A program made the position numbers and the translations under genes. Positions 11,232 through 31,169 of a stretch of 64,000 nt of DNA are shown piece after piece. The first letter of the stretch is position 1. Each line of letters opens with the position of its first letter. The stretch is from the NCBI GenBank assembly GCA_018653315.1, contig JABIAL010000007.1, forward strand, positions 11,348 to 75,347, in the 5' to 3' direction. Below the pieces are notes generated by a model, which was not told where the DNA came from, searched no databases, and saw nothing but the letters and a program-made list of their open reading frames with translations. The stretch comes from a bacterium (GTDB lineage Bacteria; Patescibacteriota; Patescibacteriia; UBA1558; GWA2-36-10).

Positions 11232-11546
11232 ATGGAAATAAAAGAATTACAAAAACAAGCCTCAGAAATTTTTATAAATAATTCTAAAAGAGATGGTATC
11301 AAAGTTGATACAGATTATTTAATTTTAAAATTAACAGAGGAGCTTGGCGAGTTTGTTCAATCTTATATAGTACACGAAAGAAGATGTCGTCCAGCAAAGT
11401 ATTTATCTGCAAAAGAAGCTAAAAGAGAATTATCTAAAGAGCTAGCCGATGTTTTGGGTTTAGTTTTTTCAATTGCAGACAAATGTGATATCGATATCGA
11501 AGAAGCTTTAGTTAAAAAATGGATAACCAAAGAGTGGATTAAATAA
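11232..11546 (+). CDS. MazG-like nucleotide pyrophosphohydrolase (small all-alpha NTP-PPase)
   Basis: Contains LTEELGEF...ELADVLG..., which is the EExGE / ExxD pattern of short MazG-type proteins. It is 104 aa. Confidence 0.5.
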   Translation: MEIKELQKQASEIFINNSKRDGIKVDTDYLILKLTEELGEFVQSYIVHERRCRPAKYLSAKEAKRELSKELADVLGLVFSIADKCDIDIEEALVKKWITKEWIK

Positions 11547-11552
11547 TATAAT

Positions 11553-11822
11553 ATGGAAATAAAATTAATAAAAAAAGACGAAAGAGGCACAAAATATCAA
11601 GCCGAAGGCTTTAAGATTTTTTATAGAGATAAAAATACCATTACCGGCGATAACGCTGAAAATGTAGCAGAGTTAATATACTTCATTACTGGTTCAGCAG
11701 AAATTACTTTAGAAGATAAAACTTGGGTAGTTGAAGCTCCGGCTAAAGTAGAATTTCCCGCCAAAACTTATCATAAAATCAAGGCTTTGACGGACGTAAG
11801 TTTTATTTTATTTGAGAAATAA
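11553..11822 (+). CDS. hypothetical small protein, cupin-like beta-barrel (weak)
   Basis: 89 aa. The residue pattern is compatible with a small cupin. Weak call. Confidence 0.3.
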   Translation: MEIKLIKKDERGTKYQAEGFKIFYRDKNTITGDNAENVAELIYFITGSAEITLEDKTWVVEAPAKVEFPAKTYHKIKALTDVSFILFEK

Positions 11823-12096
11823 AAATATGAATTCAGCAAAAGAACTAGAAAAGCAAATAGAGAAAATAAAAAAACGAAATCAACAAGTAGAGGCAGATAA
11901 GGCTTGGGAAATAAGTTGGACTCGTAGATTTGTGCTTCTTATTTTTACTTATATTGTGATTGTAATCTTTTTCTTTTTTGCTCAATTACCCAACCCATTT
12001 ATAAATGCCATAATAACAGCAGTTGCCTTTGTGATTTCTACATTGTCTGTGCCTTTATTTAAAAAATGGTGGTTAAGTAAATTTTATAGAAAATAA
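11812..12096 (+). CDS. hypothetical small membrane protein
   Basis: 94 aa with a basic N-terminus followed by 2 TM helices. Confidence 0.4.
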   Translation: MRNKNMNSAKELEKQIEKIKKRNQQVEADKAWEISWTRRFVLLIFTYIVIVIFFFFAQLPNPFINAIITAVAFVISTLSVPLFKKWWLSKFYRK

Positions 12097-12109
12097 AATT
12101 AATAAAAAT

Positions 12110-12544
12110 ATGTTATATAATCACACACAAGTTGGGCGTCTAATGGTTACTATTTTATTTATTATCGCTGTTTATTTTGGTTTTATTTTAAAGACAGTAG
12201 AATCTGATAGATCCATTATAACTGTATTAATTTTAGTTTCATTTATTTTACTTTCTTTTGTATCACTTAATGTAACGATTGATGAAAAGCATCTACGAAT
12301 TAAATTTGGTTATGGTATATTTAGAAAACATTTTGCGCTTTCAGAAATAATTTCTGTTAAATCTGTAAAAAATCATTGGTATTATGGCTGGGGCATTAGA
12401 GCATGGTTTTGGCCATATATGCGTATTTTTAATGTATCTGGTTTTGATGCAGTTGAGATCAGAATGAAAGATAGTAAAATATATAGAATAGGTACGGATG
12501 AATCTCAAAAGCTAGAGCTTGCTATTACGGAAGCTATTAAATAA
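12110..12544 (+). CDS. membrane-anchored bacterial PH-domain (bPH_2/YdbT-like) protein
   Basis: Two N-terminal TM helices are followed by a ~70-aa domain (HLRIKFGYGIFRKHFALSEI...IYRIGTDESQ) resembling bPH_2. Confidence 0.4.
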   Translation: MLYNHTQVGRLMVTILFIIAVYFGFILKTVESDRSIITVLILVSFILLSFVSLNVTIDEKHLRIKFGYGIFRKHFALSEIISVKSVKNHWYYGWGIRAWFWPYMRIFNVSGFDAVEIRMKDSKIYRIGTDESQKLELAITEAIK

Positions 12545-12614
12545 AATTAATAAAAAATAGTAAAAAAAGAGGGAGCTTAGTATTTCTACTAAACCCCCAA
12601 ATGACAGGTGGTTA

Positions 12615-12857
12615 TTAACCGCGACTTGAAGTCACGATTTTCGGTATGGCATACCAGCAAATGAATGCCATGATTGCTGCCGTGATTATTCCGGCTGGAA
12701 TAGCTTTAACGAAATACTGAAATTCCGTAGCCAGGCTTACTCCACTAAATTCCCAAGACATAGCAATATAGTTGATGTCGTGGAAGAGTGGTGTAATAAG
12801 AGCAGTGCACAGAGCTATCCAAATAATTCCGATTAGTGTAATTTTTAAAGTTTTCAT
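12615..12857 (-). CDS. hypothetical small membrane protein
   Basis: 80 aa with 2 TM helices. GAGGAG lies upstream, and a consensus promoter lies at 12907-12935. Confidence 0.5.
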   Translation of the reverse strand: MKTLKITLIGIIWIALCTALITPLFHDINYIAMSWEFSGVSLATEFQYFVKAIPAGIITAAIMAFICWYAIPKIVTSSRG

Positions 12858-12906
12858 GAAAAGAACTCCTCGTTACTTGAAATATTGGTTAAACTTGAAT
12901 AATGTC

Positions 12907-21469: not shown

Positions 21470-21632
21470 CAATTGAATAAGAATTATCAAGAGTACGGGG
21501 AGAGTTTTGGCTCAATGATCCGTCAGCAACCTGTTTTTTAAATAAGGTGCTAAGTCCAACCCTCAAGTGGGAAGATGATGTTTGGTCGTATTAACTTTCC
21601 TTTTGGGGAAAGATTTTTTAATTTTAAAATAA
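21470..21632 (+). promoter_or_regulatory. SAM-I (S-box) riboswitch with intrinsic terminator
   Basis: The S-box core matches: uUAUCAAGAG...GGGGAGAG..UGGCUCaAUGAuCCGuCAGCAACC...AAGGUGCUAAguCC...GAAGAUGAug. The P1 3' strand GAUGA pairs with UUAUC. The terminator is ctttcc-ttttgg-ggaaag followed by TTTTTTAATTTT, directly upstream of metK. Confidence 0.8.
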
Positions 21633-21638
21633 AAGATT

Positions 21639-22646
21639 ATGTTAAAGACAGCAGAAAATGTAACTTGGGGACATCCAGATAAAGTATGTGATCAAATATC
21701 TGATGCTATTTTAGATGAGTGTTTGCGTCAAGATAAAAATAGTCGAGTGGCTGTAGAAACGGTTGGTGGCCATGGTAAATTGTTTATTGTCGGTGAATTA
21801 ACTACATTGGCTAAATTTGATGCAGCCAAGATAACTCGACAAGTGTATAAAGATATTGGCTATACGGATGATTTAGATATTACTGTACATTTAGTACATC
21901 AGAGCCCAGATATCGCTCAGGGAGTCGACGTAGGGGGCGCAGGTGATCAAGGAATCATGGTCGGCTATGCTACAGCAGAAACTGTAGAAAATTTACCACT
22001 AGAACATGTTTTGGCAACAAAATTAATTCGTCGTTTAGAATTTGTGCGAGCAGATAAGAATAATCAATTATCTCAATTTTTAGGACCAGATGGTAAAGCT
22101 CAGGTGACTATAGAAGATGACAAAGTAAAGACAGTAGTTTTATCTACTCAACATACAGATAATATCAGCCAAGGTGTTTTGCGGCAGTTAATTATAAAAG
22201 AAGTTATTAAGCCAATCATTCCAGAATATGATGAGGTTCATATTAATCCGACTGGTATTTTTGTACAGGGTGGTTTTGAGGCTGATTCTGGTTTGACTGG
22301 CCGTAAAATAACGATCGATAATTATGGACCACAAGTGCCAGTCGGTGGCGGTGCTTTTTCTGGAAAAGATCCTTCAAAAGTAGATCGTTCAGCTGCTTAT
22401 ATGGCTAGATTTTTAGCGGTTAAATACCTAAAAAAATATCAAGCTAAAGAAGTGCTAGTAAAATTAGCTTATGCTATAGGTAAGAAAGAACCAGTGATGG
22501 CCATGGCTTTATTAGATGATAATCGGCTGATAAAAATAGAGGATCATGATTTATCTCCGCAGGGTATTATTGATTTTTTACGCTTAGATAAGCCACAATA
22601 TAGGGATCGGGCTCGCTTTGGTTTCTTTAAAAATTTTATTCAATAA
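21639..22646 (+). CDS. metK: S-adenosylmethionine synthetase (short form, 335 aa)
   Basis: Contains GHPDKVCDQISDAILD, GAGDQGIMVGYA and GGGAFSGKDPSKVDRSAAY. The C-terminal part is shorter than in E. coli MetK. Confidence 0.9.
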   Translation: MLKTAENVTWGHPDKVCDQISDAILDECLRQDKNSRVAVETVGGHGKLFIVGELTTLAKFDAAKITRQVYKDIGYTDDLDITVHLVHQSPDIAQGVDVGGAGDQGIMVGYATAETVENLPLEHVLATKLIRRLEFVRADKNNQLSQFLGPDGKAQVTIEDDKVKTVVLSTQHTDNISQGVLRQLIIKEVIKPIIPEYDEVHINPTGIFVQGGFEADSGLTGRKITIDNYGPQVPVGGGAFSGKDPSKVDRSAAYMARFLAVKYLKKYQAKEVLVKLAYAIGKKEPVMAMALLDDNRLIKIEDHDLSPQGIIDFLRLDKPQYRDRARFGFFKNFIQ

Positions 22647-23145: not shown

Positions 23146-25323
23146 TTATTTTTGCTCGTAGTTATAAATAAAAATATAGGATTTATCTTGGCCAACTACA
23201 AAATAATCATCAGCTGTTTCTTTAGCTTGATTTATAGCTTGTTTAGCGGAGTGCCAGTAGTTATTAACTACAAAATATAATTTATTAACTCCAGCTTTAT
23301 CCATGGCCAGCTTAGCTTCTTGATGACTAGCTTGATGTTCGATCATATTTAGATAATTTTGATAAATATTATTATTACCTAAGGGCATGGAGTAATAAAA
23401 GTTGTCATTATAGTAATGTACAAAGCCATAGGCATCAATAGCAGCGGCTCCGACCATTTGATTAGCTAAAACGATATAATCTTGATCATTGGATGATTGT
23501 TCTATTAGACGGACAGTTTCCACATCGACAGCTGTGATGTTAAAACTTTTACTATTTGAGTGACGGTCGTAAGTAGGATAGCTAAAATAGGTACTGATTA
23601 TTATAATCATAACAGTAATTGCACCGATCCATATTTTATAACTCAAGTTTTTTTGTTTTGCTAAAATATTATGCCACCAAAAATACCAAGTGCTTAAAAA
23701 TATTGGCATTACACTCAACCCAATTAAATAAATGATTCTTAGTAAATAAGCATTCTGTTCATAGTCTATTTGATTTGAAAAAGAGATAAAGACACGAGCT
23801 AAGATGTAATTACTTAATAATATACTTAACAACAGCCAGTGTTTATTAAAAAATAAATACTTATGTTTTTTTACTATAATCAACCAGCCAAGTAAAACAA
23901 TTATTATAAAAATCAGAGCATAATTATTCCAGATATTATGTATCAAGTCGATAGGGAAATTATAACTATTAACTAGTTTCGGCCAAGACCAATCAATTAA
24001 TGGCCAAGGATGCCAAGTAAATATTCGTGACCAATTTTGTCCAGCTAATCTCTGATAAAGCGCAAGTGCTGTTGGTAAACTAATAGCTGATAAGAAAACT
24101 ATGATAGCATGGATGTATTTTTTGAATTTCTTTTTTATTTTCCAATAGCGGATAGATAATAGAAGACTCATGTATAAAATAGGAATACCACCCAGAGGAT
24201 GGATAGTTAGCGTTCCAAGACCAATAATCCAGCAAAAATATAGACATTGTTTATGTTTTTTGATTACAGGTAATATAAATATAAATGTAGCTACCAAAAG
24301 AAAAGCTAAGTTTTGAGGAGTGGTTATGATAGCGAAATTAAATCCAGCAAACAAACTTAGCAAAACAGCTAGTAAACTGATCTTGCGAGGCCAGCGAAAG
24401 CCTTTATTTAGGCCATAATACAGGCTATGTGGCCATAAAATACTAAAAGCGATTGGTAAGACCAGTTTGTTGATAGTAGCGATTGGGAGCTGCCACAGGG
24501 AGTGTAAAAAGAAAGTCCAACTATACTGACCTAGGTATAAAAATAAACGAGGTTGGATGGTACTAGTTTTGTCTATCACTTCCATGGCTGCTTGATGTAG
24601 AAATGGATCATAGCCAAAACCAAGTGGATAAACCAACCAGGCGACACTAGCTAAAATAAAAAAGTGAATACTAGTTAAAAATAGTACGATGGTTGATTTT
24701 TTATTTTGGATAGTCATGATGACTAGTAAAATGCTAGCCACGATAAGCAAAGTCCAAAATTTATAACCCAATAATTCCCAAGGAGAGCGAATTATTTCTA
24801 CACTAGATCTTCTGGTTAATAAAATAATGGTCAGTAGCTCTGTTATCAAAAAAAGAGTAGGTAGAATTATATTTTTGATATTAGCCAAGCGGATACTTGG
24901 GATATCCAAAGTAGTAAAAAAATAATGTTGTTTATTTAAACGCCAAGACCAGAATTCAATGATTAGAGGAACACTAATTAAGGCAAATAAAAAAGTAATG
25001 GCGTTGATTTGCCAAACATGATAAAAAAGAGTGTAAATAATACTAAAGTATAGTAGTATTGTTAACCAGCCCAAAACATTACGAAAATTCCCAGAGATAT
25101 GGATAAATAGAATGTCGCCTAATTTTTTGCTATTAAGAGTAAAAAATAATAAACTAACAATAATACCCAAAATGGGCCAATGTAAGAATTGCCAATTTAT
25201 AATTAATAAGGCCAAAGACAATGCCTGTAAACTTATATGTTGAGTTCTATTAAGGGTAATCATCACTAACAGTTTAACATAAGTTTGGTTTTTTGTTAAA
25301 ATAAAGATATGGTGTTTAAACAA
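23146..25323 (-). CDS. large polytopic membrane protein with C-terminal extracytoplasmic domain (possible GT-C-like glycosyltransferase or polymerase)
   Basis: 725 aa. At least 14 TM helices are followed by a ~170-aa soluble domain. No specific family was recognised. Confidence 0.35.
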   Translation of the reverse strand: MFKHHIFILTKNQTYVKLLVMITLNRTQHISLQALSLALLIINWQFLHWPILGIIVSLLFFTLNSKKLGDILFIHISGNFRNVLGWLTILLYFSIIYTLFYHVWQINAITFLFALISVPLIIEFWSWRLNKQHYFFTTLDIPSIRLANIKNIILPTLFLITELLTIILLTRRSSVEIIRSPWELLGYKFWTLLIVASILLVIMTIQNKKSTIVLFLTSIHFFILASVAWLVYPLGFGYDPFLHQAAMEVIDKTSTIQPRLFLYLGQYSWTFFLHSLWQLPIATINKLVLPIAFSILWPHSLYYGLNKGFRWPRKISLLAVLLSLFAGFNFAIITTPQNLAFLLVATFIFILPVIKKHKQCLYFCWIIGLGTLTIHPLGGIPILYMSLLLSIRYWKIKKKFKKYIHAIIVFLSAISLPTALALYQRLAGQNWSRIFTWHPWPLIDWSWPKLVNSYNFPIDLIHNIWNNYALIFIIIVLLGWLIIVKKHKYLFFNKHWLLLSILLSNYILARVFISFSNQIDYEQNAYLLRIIYLIGLSVMPIFLSTWYFWWHNILAKQKNLSYKIWIGAITVMIIIISTYFSYPTYDRHSNSKSFNITAVDVETVRLIEQSSNDQDYIVLANQMVGAAAIDAYGFVHYYNDNFYYSMPLGNNNIYQNYLNMIEHQASHQEAKLAMDKAGVNKLYFVVNNYWHSAKQAINQAKETADDYFVVGQDKSYIFIYNYEQK

Positions 25324-25809: not shown

Positions 25810-26034
25810 ATCAGCTATAAATGATTTATTTAAAACCAGTTTATTTTTGTGGTTGTTTTTATTGTTATTAGAATTTTGGCGTCCTGGTACCGTGCATCGT
25901 TTTGTTAATTTAGAATATTATTTTTATTTTTTATTATTATTTAGTTTGATTATAAAATTTGTTAATTTTTCTTTTAATACCTCTAGACGTTGATTTATGG
26001 TATAATAACCTTAAGTTTTTAAAAAAGGGGGAAC

Positions 26035-26115
26035 ATGAACAAGAAAAGAAAAATAGCGCAGAAAAAACATCGTCGTAAGCGCAATAAAGAGATAGCTAAT
26101 ATTCGCTATCGTTAA
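26035..26115 (+). CDS. 26-aa highly basic peptide (MNKKRKIAQKKHRRKRNKEIANIRYR)
   Basis: An unusually strong SD (AAGGGGGAA) lies 5 nt upstream. A TGgTATAAT extended -10 lies upstream of that. It ends 3 nt before the next gene. It is not in the ORF track because it is under 60 aa. Confidence 0.35.
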   Translation: MNKKRKIAQKKHRRKRNKEIANIRYR

Positions 26116-26118
26116 ATT

Positions 26119-27444
26119 ATGCAAAACAAAAAACAAAAAATGCATGTTGTTACTGTTGATATGGGTTACGGCCATCAACGAGCAGCTTATCCTTTAGCGT
26201 CAGTTAGCGCCGGAGGAGTTATTAATGCCAATCAATATAAAGGCATCTCTAAGAATGAGGAGCGTTCTTGGCAGAAGGGTCGTAAATGGTATGAAATAAT
26301 TTCTCGTTTTAAAAAAGTGCCTATTTTAGGTGCGGTTGCTTTTGCGATGATGGATAATTTTCAAAAGATAGAACCTTTTTATCCACGACGTGATTTGTCT
26401 AAAACTTCTTCTCAACAAAGATATTTTTATAAAAAAGTTAAAAAAGGTCTAGGTAAAGATCTTATTACTACTTTAAATAAAAAACCTATTCCATTGGTGA
26501 CTACTTTTTTTGTGCCAGCTTATTTTGCTGAATACTGTAATTATGAGGGACAAATTTATTGTGTGGTTTGTGATGCTGATGTAGCTAGAGCTTGGGCACC
26601 CCATGATGCTAGGCATAGTAAAGTCATTTATTTAGCGCCAAATAAGCGTGTTAAAGAGCGTTTACAGCTTTATGGTGTACGGCCAAACAAGATTTATGTT
26701 ACGGGCTTTCCTTTACCAAAAGAGAATATCGGTGGTTTGCAACAAAAGATTTTAAAAGCCGATCTTAAAGTTCGTTTGTGCAATTTAGACCCTAAAGGAA
26801 TTTATCGCCATAAGTACAAGAATTTAATTGGGGCATACCTGTGTCCAGTTAGTGAATTACGCGCTAAACCAAAAGGAGTAACGATTACCTTTGCCGTTGG
26901 TGGCGCTGGTGCTCAACGAGAAATCGGAGTCACTTTATTACGGGTGCTTAAAAAACATATTAAAGCTGGTCGAATAAATTTAAATTTAGTAGCTGGCGTG
27001 CGGAATGATATTTATCGTTTTTTTGAAGAGGCGGTCAAACGATATGGTTTAGCTAATGCTAATAATGTTAATATCATCTTTGCTAATAACAAATACGATT
27101 ATTTTAAGATTTTTAATCGAGCTTTAAGAACAACAGATATTTTATGGACCAAGCCATCTGAGTTAACTTTTTATAGCGGTCTTGGTTTGCCGATTATCAT
27201 GGCTCCACCGATTGGCTCACAGGAAAAGTATAATCGTGATTGGCTGCAAGCTTTGGGAGCTGGTATTGATTCTGAGAATCCAGAATATGTTGATGAGTGG
27301 CTTTTTGATTGGCTAGATTCTGGTTGGTTAGCAGAAGCGGCCATGCAGGGATATTTAGATGCTCCTAAAATGGGCACCTATCATATAGAAAATATTGTTT
27401 TACATAATAAAGTAGAGGAGATAAAAGATGTTCAATTGTTATAA
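26119..27444 (+). CDS. GT28-family glycosyltransferase, MGDG-synthase/UgtP-like (glycolipid synthase)
   Basis: The N-terminal motif is HVVTVDMGYGHQRAA (G-x-GH). Also present are IYVTGFPLP and the C-terminal GT28 pattern ITFAVGGAGAQ...TKPSELTFYSGLGLPII...GSQEKYNRDWLQALGAGI. Confidence 0.6.
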   Translation: MQNKKQKMHVVTVDMGYGHQRAAYPLASVSAGGVINANQYKGISKNEERSWQKGRKWYEIISRFKKVPILGAVAFAMMDNFQKIEPFYPRRDLSKTSSQQRYFYKKVKKGLGKDLITTLNKKPIPLVTTFFVPAYFAEYCNYEGQIYCVVCDADVARAWAPHDARHSKVIYLAPNKRVKERLQLYGVRPNKIYVTGFPLPKENIGGLQQKILKADLKVRLCNLDPKGIYRHKYKNLIGAYLCPVSELRAKPKGVTITFAVGGAGAQREIGVTLLRVLKKHIKAGRINLNLVAGVRNDIYRFFEEAVKRYGLANANNVNIIFANNKYDYFKIFNRALRTTDILWTKPSELTFYSGLGLPIIMAPPIGSQEKYNRDWLQALGAGIDSENPEYVDEWLFDWLDSGWLAEAAMQGYLDAPKMGTYHIENIVLHNKVEEIKDVQLL

Positions 27445-28781
27445 TGAAAATTACTACACTACATATTAATTTATACAAAAGCATCAAGCAACCGATTAGT
27501 TTTTCTGCTTTGCCGGTCAATATTTTGATTGGTCAAAATAATTGCGGTAAGAGTAATATCTTATATGCTATTGATTACTTATTTGATGTACAGGGAGTTA
27601 GTCCTATTTTAGAATATCCAGGAGCTGATATTGAAGTAGAATTAGTTTTCACAGAAGAAGAATTGGATAGATGGAATTTACCAAGTAAAACAGCTAGTTT
27701 AACTATTAAAGATGAAAAAAGAAAACTAGCCTTTTCTAATCAGATTGTAAATTATAATGGTAATTGGAAGGATTTATTATCAGTCAAAATTAAGCATTTA
27801 AATTATGATGCTTTTAATGATTTAGAAGCGGTCGATAAAGATTGGCAAAGTTTGCAACAGCACAAAGAACATTTTAATAAATTTAAACAACATTTAAAAA
27901 ACCATTTTCCTAAAATTAGTGCCAAAGAAAATGCTTTAGATATTCATTATGAGCATGCCGGTATAAAAGAGGGGACACGTAAAGCTACTATTGATCATTT
28001 AGGTTCTGGTTTTCGTCGTATTTTTACTACTTTATTGTATATTTTTCATCCAGATTATCACATAGTTATTTTAGATGAACCAGAAACACATTTGCATCCA
28101 GTGCTAGTTAAGAAACTTTTATGGGCCATGCAAAATGCAGAAGGTGGTGGACAAATATTTTTTACCACTCATTCTCCTTTATTTATTAATTCAGTCACTT
28201 TACCGCAGGTATTGCGAGTAGTTAAAGATAGTGCTACTACTAAAGCTTTTGGTTTGCCAGTTAAAAAACAGCATTATAGTTATAAGCGTTTGATCCAAGA
28301 ATTGAATGCCGACAATGTTGAGATGTTATTTTCTGATACAACTATTTTAGTAGAGGGTATTTCTGATCGTATATTATTACGTGGCTTGATCGATCATTTT
28401 TATCAAGGTAATAAAGATATTAAAGTTGTGCAAACACATGGTAAAGGTAATATTGCTTTGTATGTAGATTTGTTAAAAATTTTTCATATTAATTATATTA
28501 TTTTAGCTGATAGAGATATTATAAAATATCAATTAGATAGAGTGATAAGTCATTTAGGGATAAAACCAAAAGCACGTAAAGCTAATGATTTAATTATTGA
28601 GCTTAAAGAATACAATGTATTTATTTTACCAGGCGGTTCAATAGAAAAACACTATCCAAAGAAATATCAGCGTGATGATAAAAAAACACTTAATGCTTTG
28701 TATGCGGCAACTGCTATTACCAAGACAGAATTTAATTCAAAAATAATGAAACCCTTGAAAGAGATAATAGATAGATTATAA
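27444..28781 (+). CDS. OLD-family (overcoming lysogenization defect) ABC-ATPase + Toprim nuclease, class-1-like single gene
   Basis: Walker A is NILIGQNNCGKSNIL and Walker B is VILDEPETHLHP. The C-terminal Toprim has TILVEGISDRILL and ILADRDI (DxD). The start overlaps the upstream stop as TAATG. Confidence 0.7.
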   Translation: MKITTLHINLYKSIKQPISFSALPVNILIGQNNCGKSNILYAIDYLFDVQGVSPILEYPGADIEVELVFTEEELDRWNLPSKTASLTIKDEKRKLAFSNQIVNYNGNWKDLLSVKIKHLNYDAFNDLEAVDKDWQSLQQHKEHFNKFKQHLKNHFPKISAKENALDIHYEHAGIKEGTRKATIDHLGSGFRRIFTTLLYIFHPDYHIVILDEPETHLHPVLVKKLLWAMQNAEGGGQIFFTTHSPLFINSVTLPQVLRVVKDSATTKAFGLPVKKQHYSYKRLIQELNADNVEMLFSDTTILVEGISDRILLRGLIDHFYQGNKDIKVVQTHGKGNIALYVDLLKIFHINYIILADRDIIKYQLDRVISHLGIKPKARKANDLIIELKEYNVFILPGGSIEKHYPKKYQRDDKKTLNALYAATAITKTEFNSKIMKPLKEIIDRL

Positions 28782-28810: not shown

Positions 28811-28861
28811 ATGGAAACATGTCCAAATTGCGGTAATGATCCATGTACTTGCGGTGCATAA
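28811..28861 (+). CDS. possible 16-aa Cys-rich peptide (METCPNCGNDPCTCGA)
   Basis: It has four Cys in 16 aa and is followed directly by an intrinsic terminator. There is no SD. This is speculative. Confidence 0.2.
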   Translation: METCPNCGNDPCTCGA

Positions 28862-28870
28862 ATAAAAGAA

Positions 28871-28936
28871 CGGCCTCTTTATCAGAATGAGGCTGTTTTT
28901 TATTTGAGTAAAAAAAGCCCGTTTTCTTGACGGGCT
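28871..28936. terminator. two convergent intrinsic terminators
   Basis: The plus-strand terminator is cggcctc..gaggctg followed by T6. The minus-strand terminator is the reverse complement of agcccgt-tttcttg-acgggct preceded by A7. Confidence 0.7.
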
Positions 28937-29158
28937 TATGAGGGGTACTACCGTTGACAATCAGCGCTTTGCGTTATGCCGGTGGCATTGTCCATAATCA
29001 TTTCCGGGGTGTTGGCTGCGTTTTTCATTTCAGCATTGACCATCTTGGCCTGAGGAGGAATGAGTAAGTGCTTCAAAAGAAGCTCCCTTCTTTAATAAAA
29101 AGCTTGCCATGATCATAGAGGTTTTTCCTCTAGTATAAAAAATTGAGAGTACATTAAT
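28909..29158 (-). ncRNA. candidate small RNA (or micro-protein gene): a GC-rich ~250-nt transcription unit
   Basis: A minus-strand consensus promoter, TTGACA-17-TACAAT, lies at 29165-29193, and an intrinsic terminator lies at 28909-28936. The body is about 50% GC in a ~30% GC genome and has no ORF longer than 33 codons. Several local hairpins are present. Confidence 0.4.
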
Positions 29159-29164
29159 GCATTA

Positions 29165-29216
29165 ATTGTATTAAAAATTTATTTTTTTGTCAAAGTTAGG
29201 CAAAAAATGATATAAT
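29165..29216. promoter_or_regulatory. face-to-face divergent promoters sharing one -35 region
   Basis: The plus-strand promoter is TTGTCA-17-(TGa)TATAAT, driving the gene at 29243. The minus-strand promoter is TTGACA-17-TACAAT. The two -35 hexamers overlap at 29187-29193. Confidence 0.55.
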
Positions 29217-29242: not shown

Positions 29243-30172
29243 ATGGATTGGTTAATTATTGCTATTGCTGCTTATTTAATTTTAGCAGTTGTCAATTTAG
29301 CAGATAAATTTTTATTAGAAAAGGTAGTTCCCAGTGCTAAGGCCTATACATTTTTAGTTGGCGTTTTAGGTTTAGCTGTGATTGTGATTGCGCCTTGGTT
29401 TTTAAGCTGGCCCGGGTGGTATTTATTATTTGGCAATTTAGCAATTGGTGCTTTATTTCCAGTAGCATTGTTATTGTTATATCATGCCTTAAAGATTGGT
29501 GATGTTTCCAAAATTATTCCATTAATTGGCGGAGCAGTTCCAATTTTTACACTTATTTTGGCCATGTTATTTTTGGGAGAAAGATTTTTATCAATGCAAT
29601 GGGTAGCAATTTTTTATTTATTGTTAGGAACAGTAATGTTAGCCTATTTGCCAACCGGCCATAATTTATGGAGTACAGTAAAATCATGGTTTGGTCTGAC
29701 TGGTCCAAAAAATAAACAAGCAGTAATGATAGCCATTGGAGCGGGTTTTGTATTTGCCGCTTTTTTTGTTGGTACTAAATTTTTGTATCTTCATCAGCCA
29801 TTTTTGAGTAGCTTTATTTGGATTAGAATTGGTACATTTTTGATAAGTTTAACTTTATTAATACCAAAAGATTTACGTAAAGAAATTTTTAAAGGACTTA
29901 AGAACATCAAAGGTAAAAATAGTGCATTGTTTTTTTCTAATCAAGGCATTGCCGCAATTGGATTTTTATTACAAAACTATGCTATTTTCTTAGGTTCGGT
30001 AGCCATAGTTAATGCTTTGCAGGGCGTGCAATTTGCCTTCCTATTAGTCTTAGGTGGATTGATTTCTGTCTTTTTCCCAAAATTACTCAAAGAAAATGTT
30101 TCTAAAATGGTTATTATTCAAAAGATTTTAGCGATTGTTTTGATTAGCTTGGGTTTGTATTTTATTATTTAG
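29243..30172 (+). CDS. DMT-superfamily (EamA-like) transporter
   Basis: 309 aa with 10 TM helices arranged as two EamA-like halves. Confidence 0.5.
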   Translation: MDWLIIAIAAYLILAVVNLADKFLLEKVVPSAKAYTFLVGVLGLAVIVIAPWFLSWPGWYLLFGNLAIGALFPVALLLLYHALKIGDVSKIIPLIGGAVPIFTLILAMLFLGERFLSMQWVAIFYLLLGTVMLAYLPTGHNLWSTVKSWFGLTGPKNKQAVMIAIGAGFVFAAFFVGTKFLYLHQPFLSSFIWIRIGTFLISLTLLIPKDLRKEIFKGLKNIKGKNSALFFSNQGIAAIGFLLQNYAIFLGSVAIVNALQGVQFAFLLVLGGLISVFFPKLLKENVSKMVIIQKILAIVLISLGLYFII

Positions 30173-30176
30173 TAAA

Positions 30177-31169
30177 ATGAAATTGTTGAAAATTATAATT
30201 ATAATTTTAATTGTTGTTTGGGCGATTTGGTTTGTTAAATTTTCTAAACATTATGTTCATAATGGCGAACTAAATGAAAATCCAGATTTGTGGGGAGTTA
30301 CTTTTTCTACTAAATTTGCTAGTGAATTAGATTTGGATATTGGTGAAACTTATAGGGCTATTTTAGATGATTTACAAGTAAGACAGATTAGATTACCTAT
30401 TTATTGGGATCAGATAGAAAAATATGAAAATGAATTTGATTTCTCATTGTTTGATCAATTGTTAGTAGAAGGTAAAAAAAGAGATGTAAAATTTATTGTT
30501 AATTTAGGTTGGCGTTTACCTCGTTGGCCAGAATGTCATGCTCCGCTTTGGGCTAAAGATATGTCAATTGAGGATGTTCAGGCCAAAACATTACGGATGT
30601 TGCGAGTTGCCGTGGGTCATTACAAAGGACATTCAGAAATAGTGGCCTGGCAAATAGAAAATGAGCCTTTAGTTGATTGGTTTGGTAAATGTCCAGCTGG
30701 TGATGAAGAATTTTTAAAGCAAGAAGTAGCTTTGGTAAAAAGTTTAGATGGTCGGCCGGTGATTGTCTCGGCTTCAGGTGAGCTTAGTTTTTGGCAAAGA
30801 GAAGCTGAAGTAGGCGATGTTTTAGCTACTACTGTTTATCGGGTGGTGTGGAATCCATGGTTCAAATATTTTCGTTATCCGTTGCCAGCTTGGTTTTATT
30901 CTTGGAAAGCAGGTCGTGTAGGAAAAACAGGAGAAAAAATGATAGTTAGTGAACTGCAGGCTGAGCCTTGGGTGATAGATGGTGGTATGAATAAAATAGA
31001 TCAAGCAGAAGTTGATAAGTCTATGAGTTTAGAACAATTTGAATCAAATTTAAAGTTTGCTCAAAAAATAAATTTTGATAAAAATTATCTATGGGGAGTA
31101 GAGTGGTGGTATTTGCAAAAAATCAACGGAAATGATGATTATTGGAATTTAGCTAAAAAACTTTTTTAG
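30177..31169 (+). CDS. membrane-anchored clan GH-A (GH5-like) glycoside hydrolase
   Basis: An N-terminal TM helix is followed by a TIM-barrel pattern with the catalytic acid/base motif WQIENEP and a later ELQAEPW nucleophile region. Confidence 0.5.
   Translation: MKLLKIIIIILIVVWAIWFVKFSKHYVHNGELNENPDLWGVTFSTKFASELDLDIGETYRAILDDLQVRQIRLPIYWDQIEKYENEFDFSLFDQLLVEGKKRDVKFIVNLGWRLPRWPECHAPLWAKDMSIEDVQAKTLRMLRVAVGHYKGHSEIVAWQIENEPLVDWFGKCPAGDEEFLKQEVALVKSLDGRPVIVSASGELSFWQREAEVGDVLATTVYRVVWNPWFKYFRYPLPAWFYSWKAGRVGKTGEKMIVSELQAEPWVIDGGMNKIDQAEVDKSMSLEQFESNLKFAQKINFDKNYLWGVEWWYLQKINGNDDYWNLAKKLF

Follow-up and report, generated by a model that had tools for sequence, protein, structure and literature searches.

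A stand-alone OLD-family ATPase-Toprim gene lodged between a glycosyltransferase and a transporter gene in a patescibacterial genome

Is an OLD-family nuclease gene that sits in an operon of an ultra-small bacterium an immune gene or a housekeeping enzyme? This is a concrete question for organisms with very few recognisable defence or repair systems. It is raised by a stretch of 64,000 nucleotides (nt) from a member of the Patescibacteria (assembly GCA_018653315.1, contig JABIAL010000007.1, positions 11,348 to 75,347 of the forward strand; hereafter the window), in which a 445-amino-acid (aa) open reading frame (ORF) at 27444..28781 (+) fuses an N-terminal ABC ATPase to a C-terminal Toprim nuclease. 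The gene, called OLD below, follows a glycosyltransferase (GT) gene and precedes the genes of an EamA-family transporter and a glycoside hydrolase-like (GH) protein. Within a family that otherwise plays a central part in phage defence (Gabija, PARIS, retrons), stand-alone OLDs are understood least, and one archaeal OLD was recently shown to be a cell-cycle factor instead. The type of protein, its automated annotation name and its clade in a published tree are already known, and no new domain or chemistry is involved: OLD is a genuine though rather ordinary member of a known family, in a branch limited to ultra-small bacteria and archaea. New here are the comparison of the operon with and without OLD, the passenger pattern, the leader coupling relay and the constraint data. 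The same operon with and without the gene provides a clean natural comparison for this uncharacterised branch of bacteria from the Candidate Phyla Radiation (CPR) and of DPANN archaea.

Identity of the OLD protein

A first reading of this DNA, made from the letters alone (the sequence-only reading), had recognised an OLD-family ATPase-Toprim protein by the motifs CGKSN, DEPETHLHP, EGISD and DRD, and had likened it to P2 Old, GajA and AriA-type nucleases. Both assignments are borne out by the ORF itself and by profile and structure searches. Pfam returned AAA_21 (1.3e-26), AAA_15 (1.3e-21) and OLD-like_TOPRIM (PF20469, 1.2e-13), each of which exceeded its gathering score (for PF20469, 51.8 bits versus a cut-off of 23.2). 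The top PADLOC model was Old (1e-35), followed by AriA and then by many GajA models; NCBIfam gave sub-threshold matches alone, for example retron_eff_Eco8 with 46.8 bits versus a cut-off of 250. In a sequence search of the PDB, the class 1 OLD of Thermus scotoductus (TsOLD, 6p74) scored best (2.6e-10) and GajA came next. An AlphaFold2 model built from 29 family members was confident (predicted local distance difference test 86.9, predicted template modelling (TM) score 0.84). When this model was compared with the PDB by Foldseek, 6p74 was the best match (E 3e-19, TM 0.60/0.53) and the top 21 matches were TsOLD, GajA and the retron Eco8 OLD (E 3e-19 to 1.5e-12), while SMC/Rad50 heads ranked below the OLD structures.

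We then located the catalytic residues through an alignment to 6p74 together with the mutational map of TsOLD (PMC7049728), and followed their conservation in 29 family members, which share 47-78% identity with the query (motif positions are collected in Table 1). On the ATPase side, K36 corresponds to P-loop residue K34 of TsOLD, D211/E212 to E276/E277 of Walker B (whose core, ILDEPETHLHP, spans aa 209-219) and H218 to H283 of the D-loop; H243 was matched to H-loop residue H310 by its THSP motif, the TsOLD number not being counted on the 6p74 alignment. On the Toprim side, E304, D356 and D358 correspond to the metal A ligands E377, D431 and D433, and D308 to the metal B ligand D381. For S399/E401, which lie in a stretch outside the alignment, we propose equivalence to the metal B residues S478/E480 from motif order and spacing. 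For most of these residues, mutation of the TsOLD equivalent shows that it is needed (PMC7049728). The mapped catalytic residues K36, E212, H218, H243, E304, D308, D356, D358 and E401 were invariant in all 29 members, and the only mapped positions that varied were 211 (D/N/S) and 399 (S/A/D/C). Thus the Toprim glutamate and DxD motif, whose loss the sequence-only reading had named as fatal to its assignment, are present and aligned to TsOLD. In the LGSGF motif, which lies at the N-terminus of helix 188-201 in the model, G187 and G189 were invariant and S188 was found in at least 90% of the members. The acidic residue ahead of the catalytic glutamate, aa 211 (28074-28076), is Asp here, Ser or Asn in many members and Glu in TsOLD. 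The model further contains a helical insertion (aa 104-185) made of four short helices (aa 106-154) and a low-confidence loop. Taken together, sequence and predicted fold firmly support that OLD encodes a complete, constrained ATPase-Toprim enzyme of the OLD family.

The closest published relatives belong to U2, an uncharacterised clade of CPR and DPANN proteins (Yang et al. 2025, EMBO Rep, PMC12796447, Dataset EV1). The U2 members OIP80295 (Parcubacteria) and MFA5030183 (Patescibacteria) are 35-36% identical to the window OLD over the full length, and a U2 member from Nanoarchaeota is 39% identical over the Walker B-to-Toprim segment. Common to U2 and the window OLD are the motifs YKSI, IGxNNxGKSN, LGSGF, EPExHLHP, THSP, QELNADNxEMFFAD and LVEGxSD. 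Membership of the window OLD in U2 is firmly supported because of its 35-36% identity to U2 members and because the OLD of a related locus (L017) adjoins OIP80295 in the family tree. Unlike U2 at large, the window OLD falls into a tighter sub-clade (99% bootstrap) that is fixed between GT and EamA, and the ATPase insertion of the DPANN members of U2 has about 80 aa more.

The sequence-only reading had called the protein class-1-like, which holds by gene context but not by phylogeny. In the context definition of Schiltz et al. 2019/2020 and Dot et al. 2023, class 1 OLDs (TsOLD, P2 Old, Vibrio cholerae OLD, E. coli YbjD/OldB) are likewise single genes without a helicase or retron partner. However, the relatives of the window OLD are labelled U2 rather than Class 1; its position outside the Class 1/2 clade rests on the labels of Yang et al. 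2025, our own tree having been built without Class 1 sequences. The window OLD is only about 17% identical to TsOLD and 83 aa shorter; the region between Walker A and Walker B, which in TsOLD holds the four-helix dimerisation insert, accounts for 65 of the missing residues. It keeps an LGSGF signature-like motif, whereas the class 1 signature has been described as degenerate (PMC7049728), and it sits in an operon, whereas class 1 OLD genes are isolated.

Other OLD systems differ more plainly in gene content. GajA of Gabija (class 2) shares the two-domain fold (Foldseek 1e-16 to 1e-13) but is about 130 aa longer. The tail after the DxD motif measures 87 aa in the window OLD, 95 aa in TsOLD and about 143 aa in GajA, and since it is short, the window OLD lacks the class 2 C-terminal helical domain; in the model, only short helices follow the Toprim sheet. 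In Gabija the UvrD-like helicase gene gajB comes directly after gajA, whereas the window OLD precedes a 16-aa ORF, a spacer and the EamA gene. In PARIS (class 4), AriA and AriB are encoded by separate genes, while the window OLD has both domains in one ORF, of which AriA models match just the ATPase region (1.3e-28). Structures of the retron Eco8 OLD (class 3, retron type I-B) match the whole protein, but no reverse transcriptase gene was found among the neighbours of OLD, and no msr/msd non-coding RNA (ncRNA) in the window. Finally, Cran1 (class 5, Sulfolobales) is, like the window OLD within its clade, lineage-restricted, vertically inherited, strongly constrained and without defence neighbours, a signature through which Cran1 was discovered as a non-defence OLD. 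Cran1 belongs to clade U11 and not U2, and the window OLD is not universal in its host lineage, being lost or absent in the sister clade described below and rare in the phylum.

That no UvrD/GajB partner follows the gene, as had been noted, was confirmed and extended. PADLOC and Pfam searches of the neighbours between about 18 and 37.5 kb detected no helicase, reverse transcriptase, AriB or other defence gene. The sole matches to defence models nearby were a generic subtilase and, 6 kb away, a TrmB-type methyltransferase that matched the 'mad2' model; within about 9 kb of OLD no helicase, reverse transcriptase or other defence gene was found. These neighbours are all housekeeping or envelope genes. 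Likewise, no helicase, retron or AriB partner stood next to OLD in any of 21 related genome loci and six further contexts.

Genomic context and distribution of the family

We compared the ORFs of the 21 genome loci with full-length family members to those of the window. Ten of them (OLD 47-86% identical) matched the window in the order and strand of GT-OLD-EamA-GH, and in five (39-40%) OLD-EamA-GH stood behind a CAP-domain gene. The remaining six (33-38%) had other neighbours, among them a DSP phosphatase gene with MnmA, MacB/FtsX, HlyD and YfhO. In a second approach, a metagenome scan was seeded with GT, and the 80 loci returned were classed by the genes downstream of GT. Four carried OLD; EamA/GH came directly after GT, without OLD, in 28; other genes followed GT, again without OLD, in 24; and 24 were too short to judge. 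None of the 52 OLD-less GT loci contained an OLD-like ORF within about 6 kb (family hidden Markov model, E < 1e-5).

A bootstrapped neighbour-joining tree of concatenated EamA and GH proteins placed the window in a clade of 14 loci (79% bootstrap), all of which have OLD between GT and EamA. Its sister clade, also of 14 loci (93%), lacks OLD, and the pair is supported by 97%. A second OLD-bearing clade (100%) branches outside both sister clades, and deeper branches are without OLD. Monophyly of the OLD-bearing loci received 2% bootstrap on this tree. The OLD-less loci and this tree indicate that GT-EamA-GH is the older unit and that OLD was inserted upstream of EamA, either by one gain followed by a loss or by two gains.

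Elsewhere, the family occupies quite different positions. In three loci (L243, L244 and L245; 3354-8709) a 526-aa member lies between dnaK and dnaJ in the order grpE-dnaK-OLD-dnaJ, and the OLD stop codon abuts the dnaJ start with a gap of zero bases. Further contexts were DSPc-OLD-mnmA, HD-OLD-MgsA (MgsA/RarA) and OLD beside an RND pump, and one copy was located about 1 kb downstream of a DDE transposase gene. Because OLD-less GT loci exist, OLD-bearing loci are not monophyletic, contexts elsewhere vary and the family is small and patchy, there is firm support for OLD as a positional passenger in housekeeping operons, whose link to GT would be one of position and not of function. A functional module of OLD with GT was accordingly rejected as a candidate, being largely refuted by the OLD-less operons. 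The sequence-only reading had held that a consistent association with lipid-synthesis genes would point to a housekeeping role of the SMC/RecF kind: GT-OLD-EamA-GH is indeed kept in the whole clade, but the sister clade, the 52 OLD-less loci and the other contexts speak against such consistency.

How large is the family? A search of 5.8 billion proteins with OLD gave 652 matches at E <= 1e-5. The best 120 of these 652 were at least 47% identical to the query and all 422-462 aa long, except for one 332-aa fragment; named hosts among the best 120 were Patescibacteria (Komeilibacteria, Nomurabacteria and Parcubacteria). Several relatives are annotated by JGI as "predicted ATP-dependent endonuclease of OLD family". 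In a profile search of 1.84 billion cluster representatives (clusters at 50% identity), 10,044 OLD-like representatives scored < 1e-10, but only about 30 aligned to the profile over the full length (417-484 aa, plus five of 526-538 aa); beyond these, OLDs of 600-720 aa matched with the C-terminal half only. Across Patescibacteria species genomes the family is rare, with members in 21 of those returned. These numbers show that the compact OLDs (about 420-480 aa) form a small, sharply bounded and patchy family, and its presence in both CPR bacteria and DPANN archaea suggests horizontal spread; a small, patchy, cross-domain distribution of this kind is what an accessory gene would have. When 2.9 million viral contigs were scanned, they yielded only partial OLD/AAA_21 relatives (at most 50% identity, the best-scoring 24-31%). 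A phage origin of the gene was rejected, as no family member was found in these contigs.

Several metagenome-assembled genome records with a clearly Patescibacteria-type locus are titled 'uncultured Gammaproteobacteria bacterium' (L001, L003, L004, L006, L009-L011, L015, L020 and L021), which looks like a placeholder or mistaken taxonomy.

Defence, genome maintenance and other roles

What, then, does the passenger do? OLD would be a stand-alone, catalytically competent U2 enzyme, set between GT and EamA and no part of the envelope pathway. It may dimerise via the short helical insertion, and ATP binding and hydrolysis in the ATPase dimer would then gate the two-metal site of the Toprim domain. 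The gated site would nick or cleave nucleic acid, presumably DNA and possibly tRNA, as for P2 Old. We give a probability of roughly 0.5 to the reading in which OLD serves as a single-gene nuclease for surveillance or defence, directed at phages and other mobile DNA and maintained constitutively at a low level. The anti-phage role would follow from family membership; defence is the role of all bacterial OLDs that have been characterised (PMC10568477, PMC12392090). The rarity and patchiness of the family, its lineage-dependent context, its occurrence in two domains of life and its absence from the sister clade also suggest defence. Defence islands are rarely formed in CPR genomes (PMC12259885).

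A number of observations weigh against this main reading. First, OLD diverges in step with its neighbours: its pairwise identities correlate with those of EamA (r = 0.88) and of GH (r = 0.87), and the means are alike (49% for OLD, 48-50% for EamA/GH). Second, OLD is kept in every locus of the 14-locus clade, although flanking proteins have diverged to about 50% identity. Third, dN/dS between the window and its closest relative was 0.069 for OLD, versus 0.055 for GT, 0.12 for EamA and 0.18 for GH, values that compare neighbouring genes only, since dS of about 1.0-1.3 is near saturation. Within its clade OLD is thus inherited vertically and under strong purifying selection. Fourth, in a tree of OLD alone the union of the two OLD-bearing clades had 13% bootstrap, so that one gain plus one loss is not distinguishable from two gains. 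Fifth, no family member was present among the 2.9 million viral contigs. Finally, OLD seems welded into housekeeping operons without regulation of its own, which is unusual for a potentially toxic nuclease.

Most of these observations would fit a domesticated enzyme of genome maintenance, like that proposed for archaeal Cran1; we regard this as a serious but less probable alternative. In hosts with pared-down repair machinery, OLD could then be an ATP-dependent nickase/exonuclease that relaxes the chromosome or takes part in replication, repair or recombination, its expression being constitutive along with that of core genes. Vertical co-inheritance with its neighbours, retention throughout the deep clade, strong purifying selection and the absence of viral copies all favour such a role. 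So do the missing promoter and Shine-Dalgarno (SD) sequence of OLD, its tight, conserved junction with a housekeeping gene, and the repeated insertion of family members into core operons (dnaK-OLD-dnaJ; beside MgsA/RarA). There are precedents as well: Cran1, recognised by the same lineage-restricted vertical pattern, proved essential rather than antiviral (PMC12796447), and E. coli YbjD is a chromosomal stand-alone OLD with merely weak phage phenotypes (PMC13261556). However, the sister clade and 52 related GT loci cleanly lack OLD, and it is rare across Patescibacteria species genomes; a core enzyme would be expected to be far more widespread and uniform. Contexts also differ by lineage, one copy lying about 1 kb from an insertion sequence transposase gene, and the presence of the family in both CPR and DPANN suggests horizontal spread.

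The maintenance role can be widened to the whole branch. Tentatively, and with the balance of probability leaning the other way, the compact U2 OLDs of CPR and DPANN may be chromosome-maintenance nickases/exonucleases, a bacterial counterpart of Cran1, and not immune genes. If so, these OLDs would be wired into core operons (envelope GT, dnaK-dnaJ) and made in step with growth, and they would offset the sparse repair and topology toolkit of ultra-small symbionts.

It is improbable that the ATPase is the functional part, with OLD acting as a sensor or toxic ATPase, as reported for YbjD, and the Toprim domain being secondary or regulatory. The Toprim domain of YbjD is dispensable for its phage phenotypes (PMC13261556), and the LGSGF signature-like motif and the catalytic glutamate are well kept in the family. 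Yet none of the Toprim ligands E304, D308, D356, D358 and E401 varies in the 29 sequences, whose identity falls as low as 47%, and this argues for selection on nuclease chemistry.

Least credible, at odds we consider very long, is a working component of the envelope operon that is tied to the glycolipid or glycan pathway of GT-EamA-GH (surface modification might, for instance, be coupled to the uptake or degradation of DNA): the gene order and the tight GT-OLD junction are kept across the whole clade and other members adjoin membrane or envelope genes (CAP, YfhO, MacB/FtsX, HlyD), but GT-EamA-GH is contiguous without OLD in 28 loci, including the 14 of the sister clade, relatives sit in dnaK-dnaJ, mnmA and MgsA contexts, the protein matches no membrane or signal-peptide family of Pfam and has the fold of a soluble OLD in the AlphaFold2/Foldseek comparison, and OLD is cut off from EamA/GH in the window, by a terminator-like hairpin as well as a separate promoter.

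Expression elements and neighbouring genes

The sequence-only reading had also pointed to a basic 26-aa peptide with the strongest SD of the window ahead of GT and to a TAATG overlap of OLD with the GT stop codon. Both are seen in the sequence (Table 1): the ATG of OLD shares its A with the last base of the GT TAA stop, in the context ...TTATAATGAAA.... Pairing with the anti-SD is essentially absent at the starts of GT (+0.7 kcal/mol) and OLD (-1.1 kcal/mol). Of the 13 loci in which the spacing between GT and OLD was measured, 10 had -1 to +8 nt. The 26-aa ORF is kept as a peptide in L001, L002, L003, L006 and L007; counted by eye codon by codon, window and L001 differ by six synonymous changes and one amino-acid change. 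No Pfam family matched this peptide or the Cys-rich peptides described below. The ORF looks like a ribosome-loading leader. Because GT-OLD spacing is tight, GT and OLD are without SD and the strongest SD is on the leader ORF, we infer a translational-coupling relay from leader to GT to OLD that is fed by a single ribosome-loading site. The strong SD would load ribosomes on the leader, GT would be started 3 nt past its stop codon and OLD would be reached through the overlap with the GT stop, with neither a promoter nor a ribosome-binding site of its own. The locus would then be a tidy example of gene expression purely by a coupling relay from a leader peptide. Upstream, an element of the TGnTATAAT type was found at the same relative position in 9 of the 11 related loci with readable upstream sequence (L001-L003, L006, L007, L010, L159-L161) and was not visible in L008 and L009; a two-hexamer scan misses the element of the window, because there is no good -35. 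In L159 (7321-7885), GT and OLD are separated by a 565-nt insert, whose encoded protein has an N-terminus like that of type IV pilins (KKQSGFTLIELLVVVFIIGVL).

Table 1. Positions of sequence features in the window (predicted or read from the sequence; residue conservation refers to the 29 family members).
Feature	Position	Strand	Remarks
Neighbours at about 18-37.5 kb, upstream of GT, in order			RlmN-like radical SAM protein, YkuD transpeptidase, TrmB-type methyltransferase
Next neighbours, in order			SAM riboswitch, MetK, HU, 725-aa membrane protein, two small proteins, 26-aa ORF, GT, OLD
Extended -10 promoter-like element, TGgTATAAT	25998..26006	+	read from sequence; putative function
SD of leader ORF, AAGGGGGA	26025..26032	+	-10.9 kcal/mol, best anti-SD duplex of 80 starts in the window
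26-aa highly basic leader ORF, MNKKRKIAQKKHRRKRNKEIANIRYR	26035..26115	+	stop codon 3 nt before GT ATG
GT, 441 aa, GT-B fold, DUF6938	26119..27444	+	Pfam DUF6938 1.7e-12
Walker A/P-loop, GQNNCGKSN	27531..27557	+	aa 30-38; G30, N32, G35, K36 invariant
ABC-signature-like motif, LGSGF	27999..28013	+	aa 186-190, about 20 aa ahead of Walker B
Walker B and D-loop, IVILDEPETHLHP	28062..28100	+	aa 207-219; E212, P213, E214, H218 invariant
H-loop, TTHSP	28164..28178	+	aa 241-245; T242, H243, S244, P245 invariant
Toprim motif, ILVEGISD	28344..28367	+	aa 301-308; E304, G305, S307, D308 invariant
Toprim DxD, LADRD	28503..28517	+	aa 354-358; D356, D358 invariant
SxE motif	28638..28646	+	aa 399-401; E401 invariant, position 399 S/A/D/C
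16-aa four-cysteine mini-ORF, METCPNCGNDPCTCGA	28811..28861	+	directly after OLD
Terminator-like hairpin, GGCCTC...GAGGCT and T-run	28872..28905	+	read from sequence
Promoter-like site for EamA/GH, TTGTCA-18-TATAAT with TG	29187..29216	+	11/12 matches
EamA-family transporter	29243-30172	+	Pfam EamA 2.2e-09
GH-like protein	30177-31169	+	weak Glyco_hydro_42 match
Downstream neighbours, in order			EamA, GH-like, S8 peptidase with FG-GAP repeats, GtrA, three GT2, epimerase/dehydratase, DUF2304

The four-cysteine mini-ORF behind OLD has no SD and is probably part of the same transcript. Cys-rich ORFs occupy the same position in four relatives, L004 (2440), L165 (2466), L003 (11367, 45 aa) and L020 (11391, 39 aa), where they span 17-45 aa and are metallothionein-like in L003 and L020; L001 has a degenerate copy. 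They occur in both OLD-bearing clades, and the scan of OLD-less loci turned up none. Over a stretch of 33 nt the window and L003 share 97% identity, though the OLD proteins are only 57% identical. The hairpin that follows was caught as terminator-shaped helices by two weak Rfam small RNA alignments, and a simple scan misses it because its loop has 11 nt; it likely ends the leader-GT-OLD unit. Together with the promoter-like site ahead of EamA/GH, this arrangement would mean that the insertion of OLD split the old operon into two transcription units in the window genome.

Between OLD and EamA lies a minus-strand unit (28915-29193). Its promoter (TTGACA-17-TACAAT, 29193-29165) is close to consensus, its body of about 240 nt is richer in GC, and its terminator (28937-28915) is strong. 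Conservation of the unit is 77% in L001, whose 1.55-kb spacer (11339-12892) contains several similar GC-rich blocks, each with a terminal hairpin. The unit had no Rfam match and folded no better than shuffled sequences (z = -0.39); it may represent a family of small RNA or small-protein genes in a variable spot. Rfam searches of the 461-nt spacer after OLD, with gathering as well as E-value thresholds, returned nothing credible for the window or L001, and an ncRNA partner in this spacer was therefore rejected.

GT had been described as a UgtP-like GT28 enzyme, which holds as a remote likeness. A profile search of the PDB found UgtP (9wde, 1.1e-8) and MGD1 (0.048), Pfam assigned the DUF6938 family, and NCBIfam gave weak matches to diglucosyl-diacylglycerol synthase; the Pfam match to MGDG_synth (0.0012), however, stays under the cut-off. 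PADLOC returned no match for GT. In OLD-less relatives, EamA and GH are the conserved downstream partners of GT. The GC content is flat at about 32% across the OLD gene.

In the window as a whole, Rfam detected two tRNAs and an S-adenosylmethionine (SAM) riboswitch only. The riboswitch (21481-21581 (+), 63.7 bits) lies directly upstream of the SAM synthetase gene (21639-22646 (+)), an ordinary arrangement. The polytopic 725-aa membrane protein (23146-25323 (-)) had no Pfam or PADLOC match. Its gene is divergent from that of a conserved 166-aa protein, and it is found upstream of the cluster in five relatives, with 44-76% identity.

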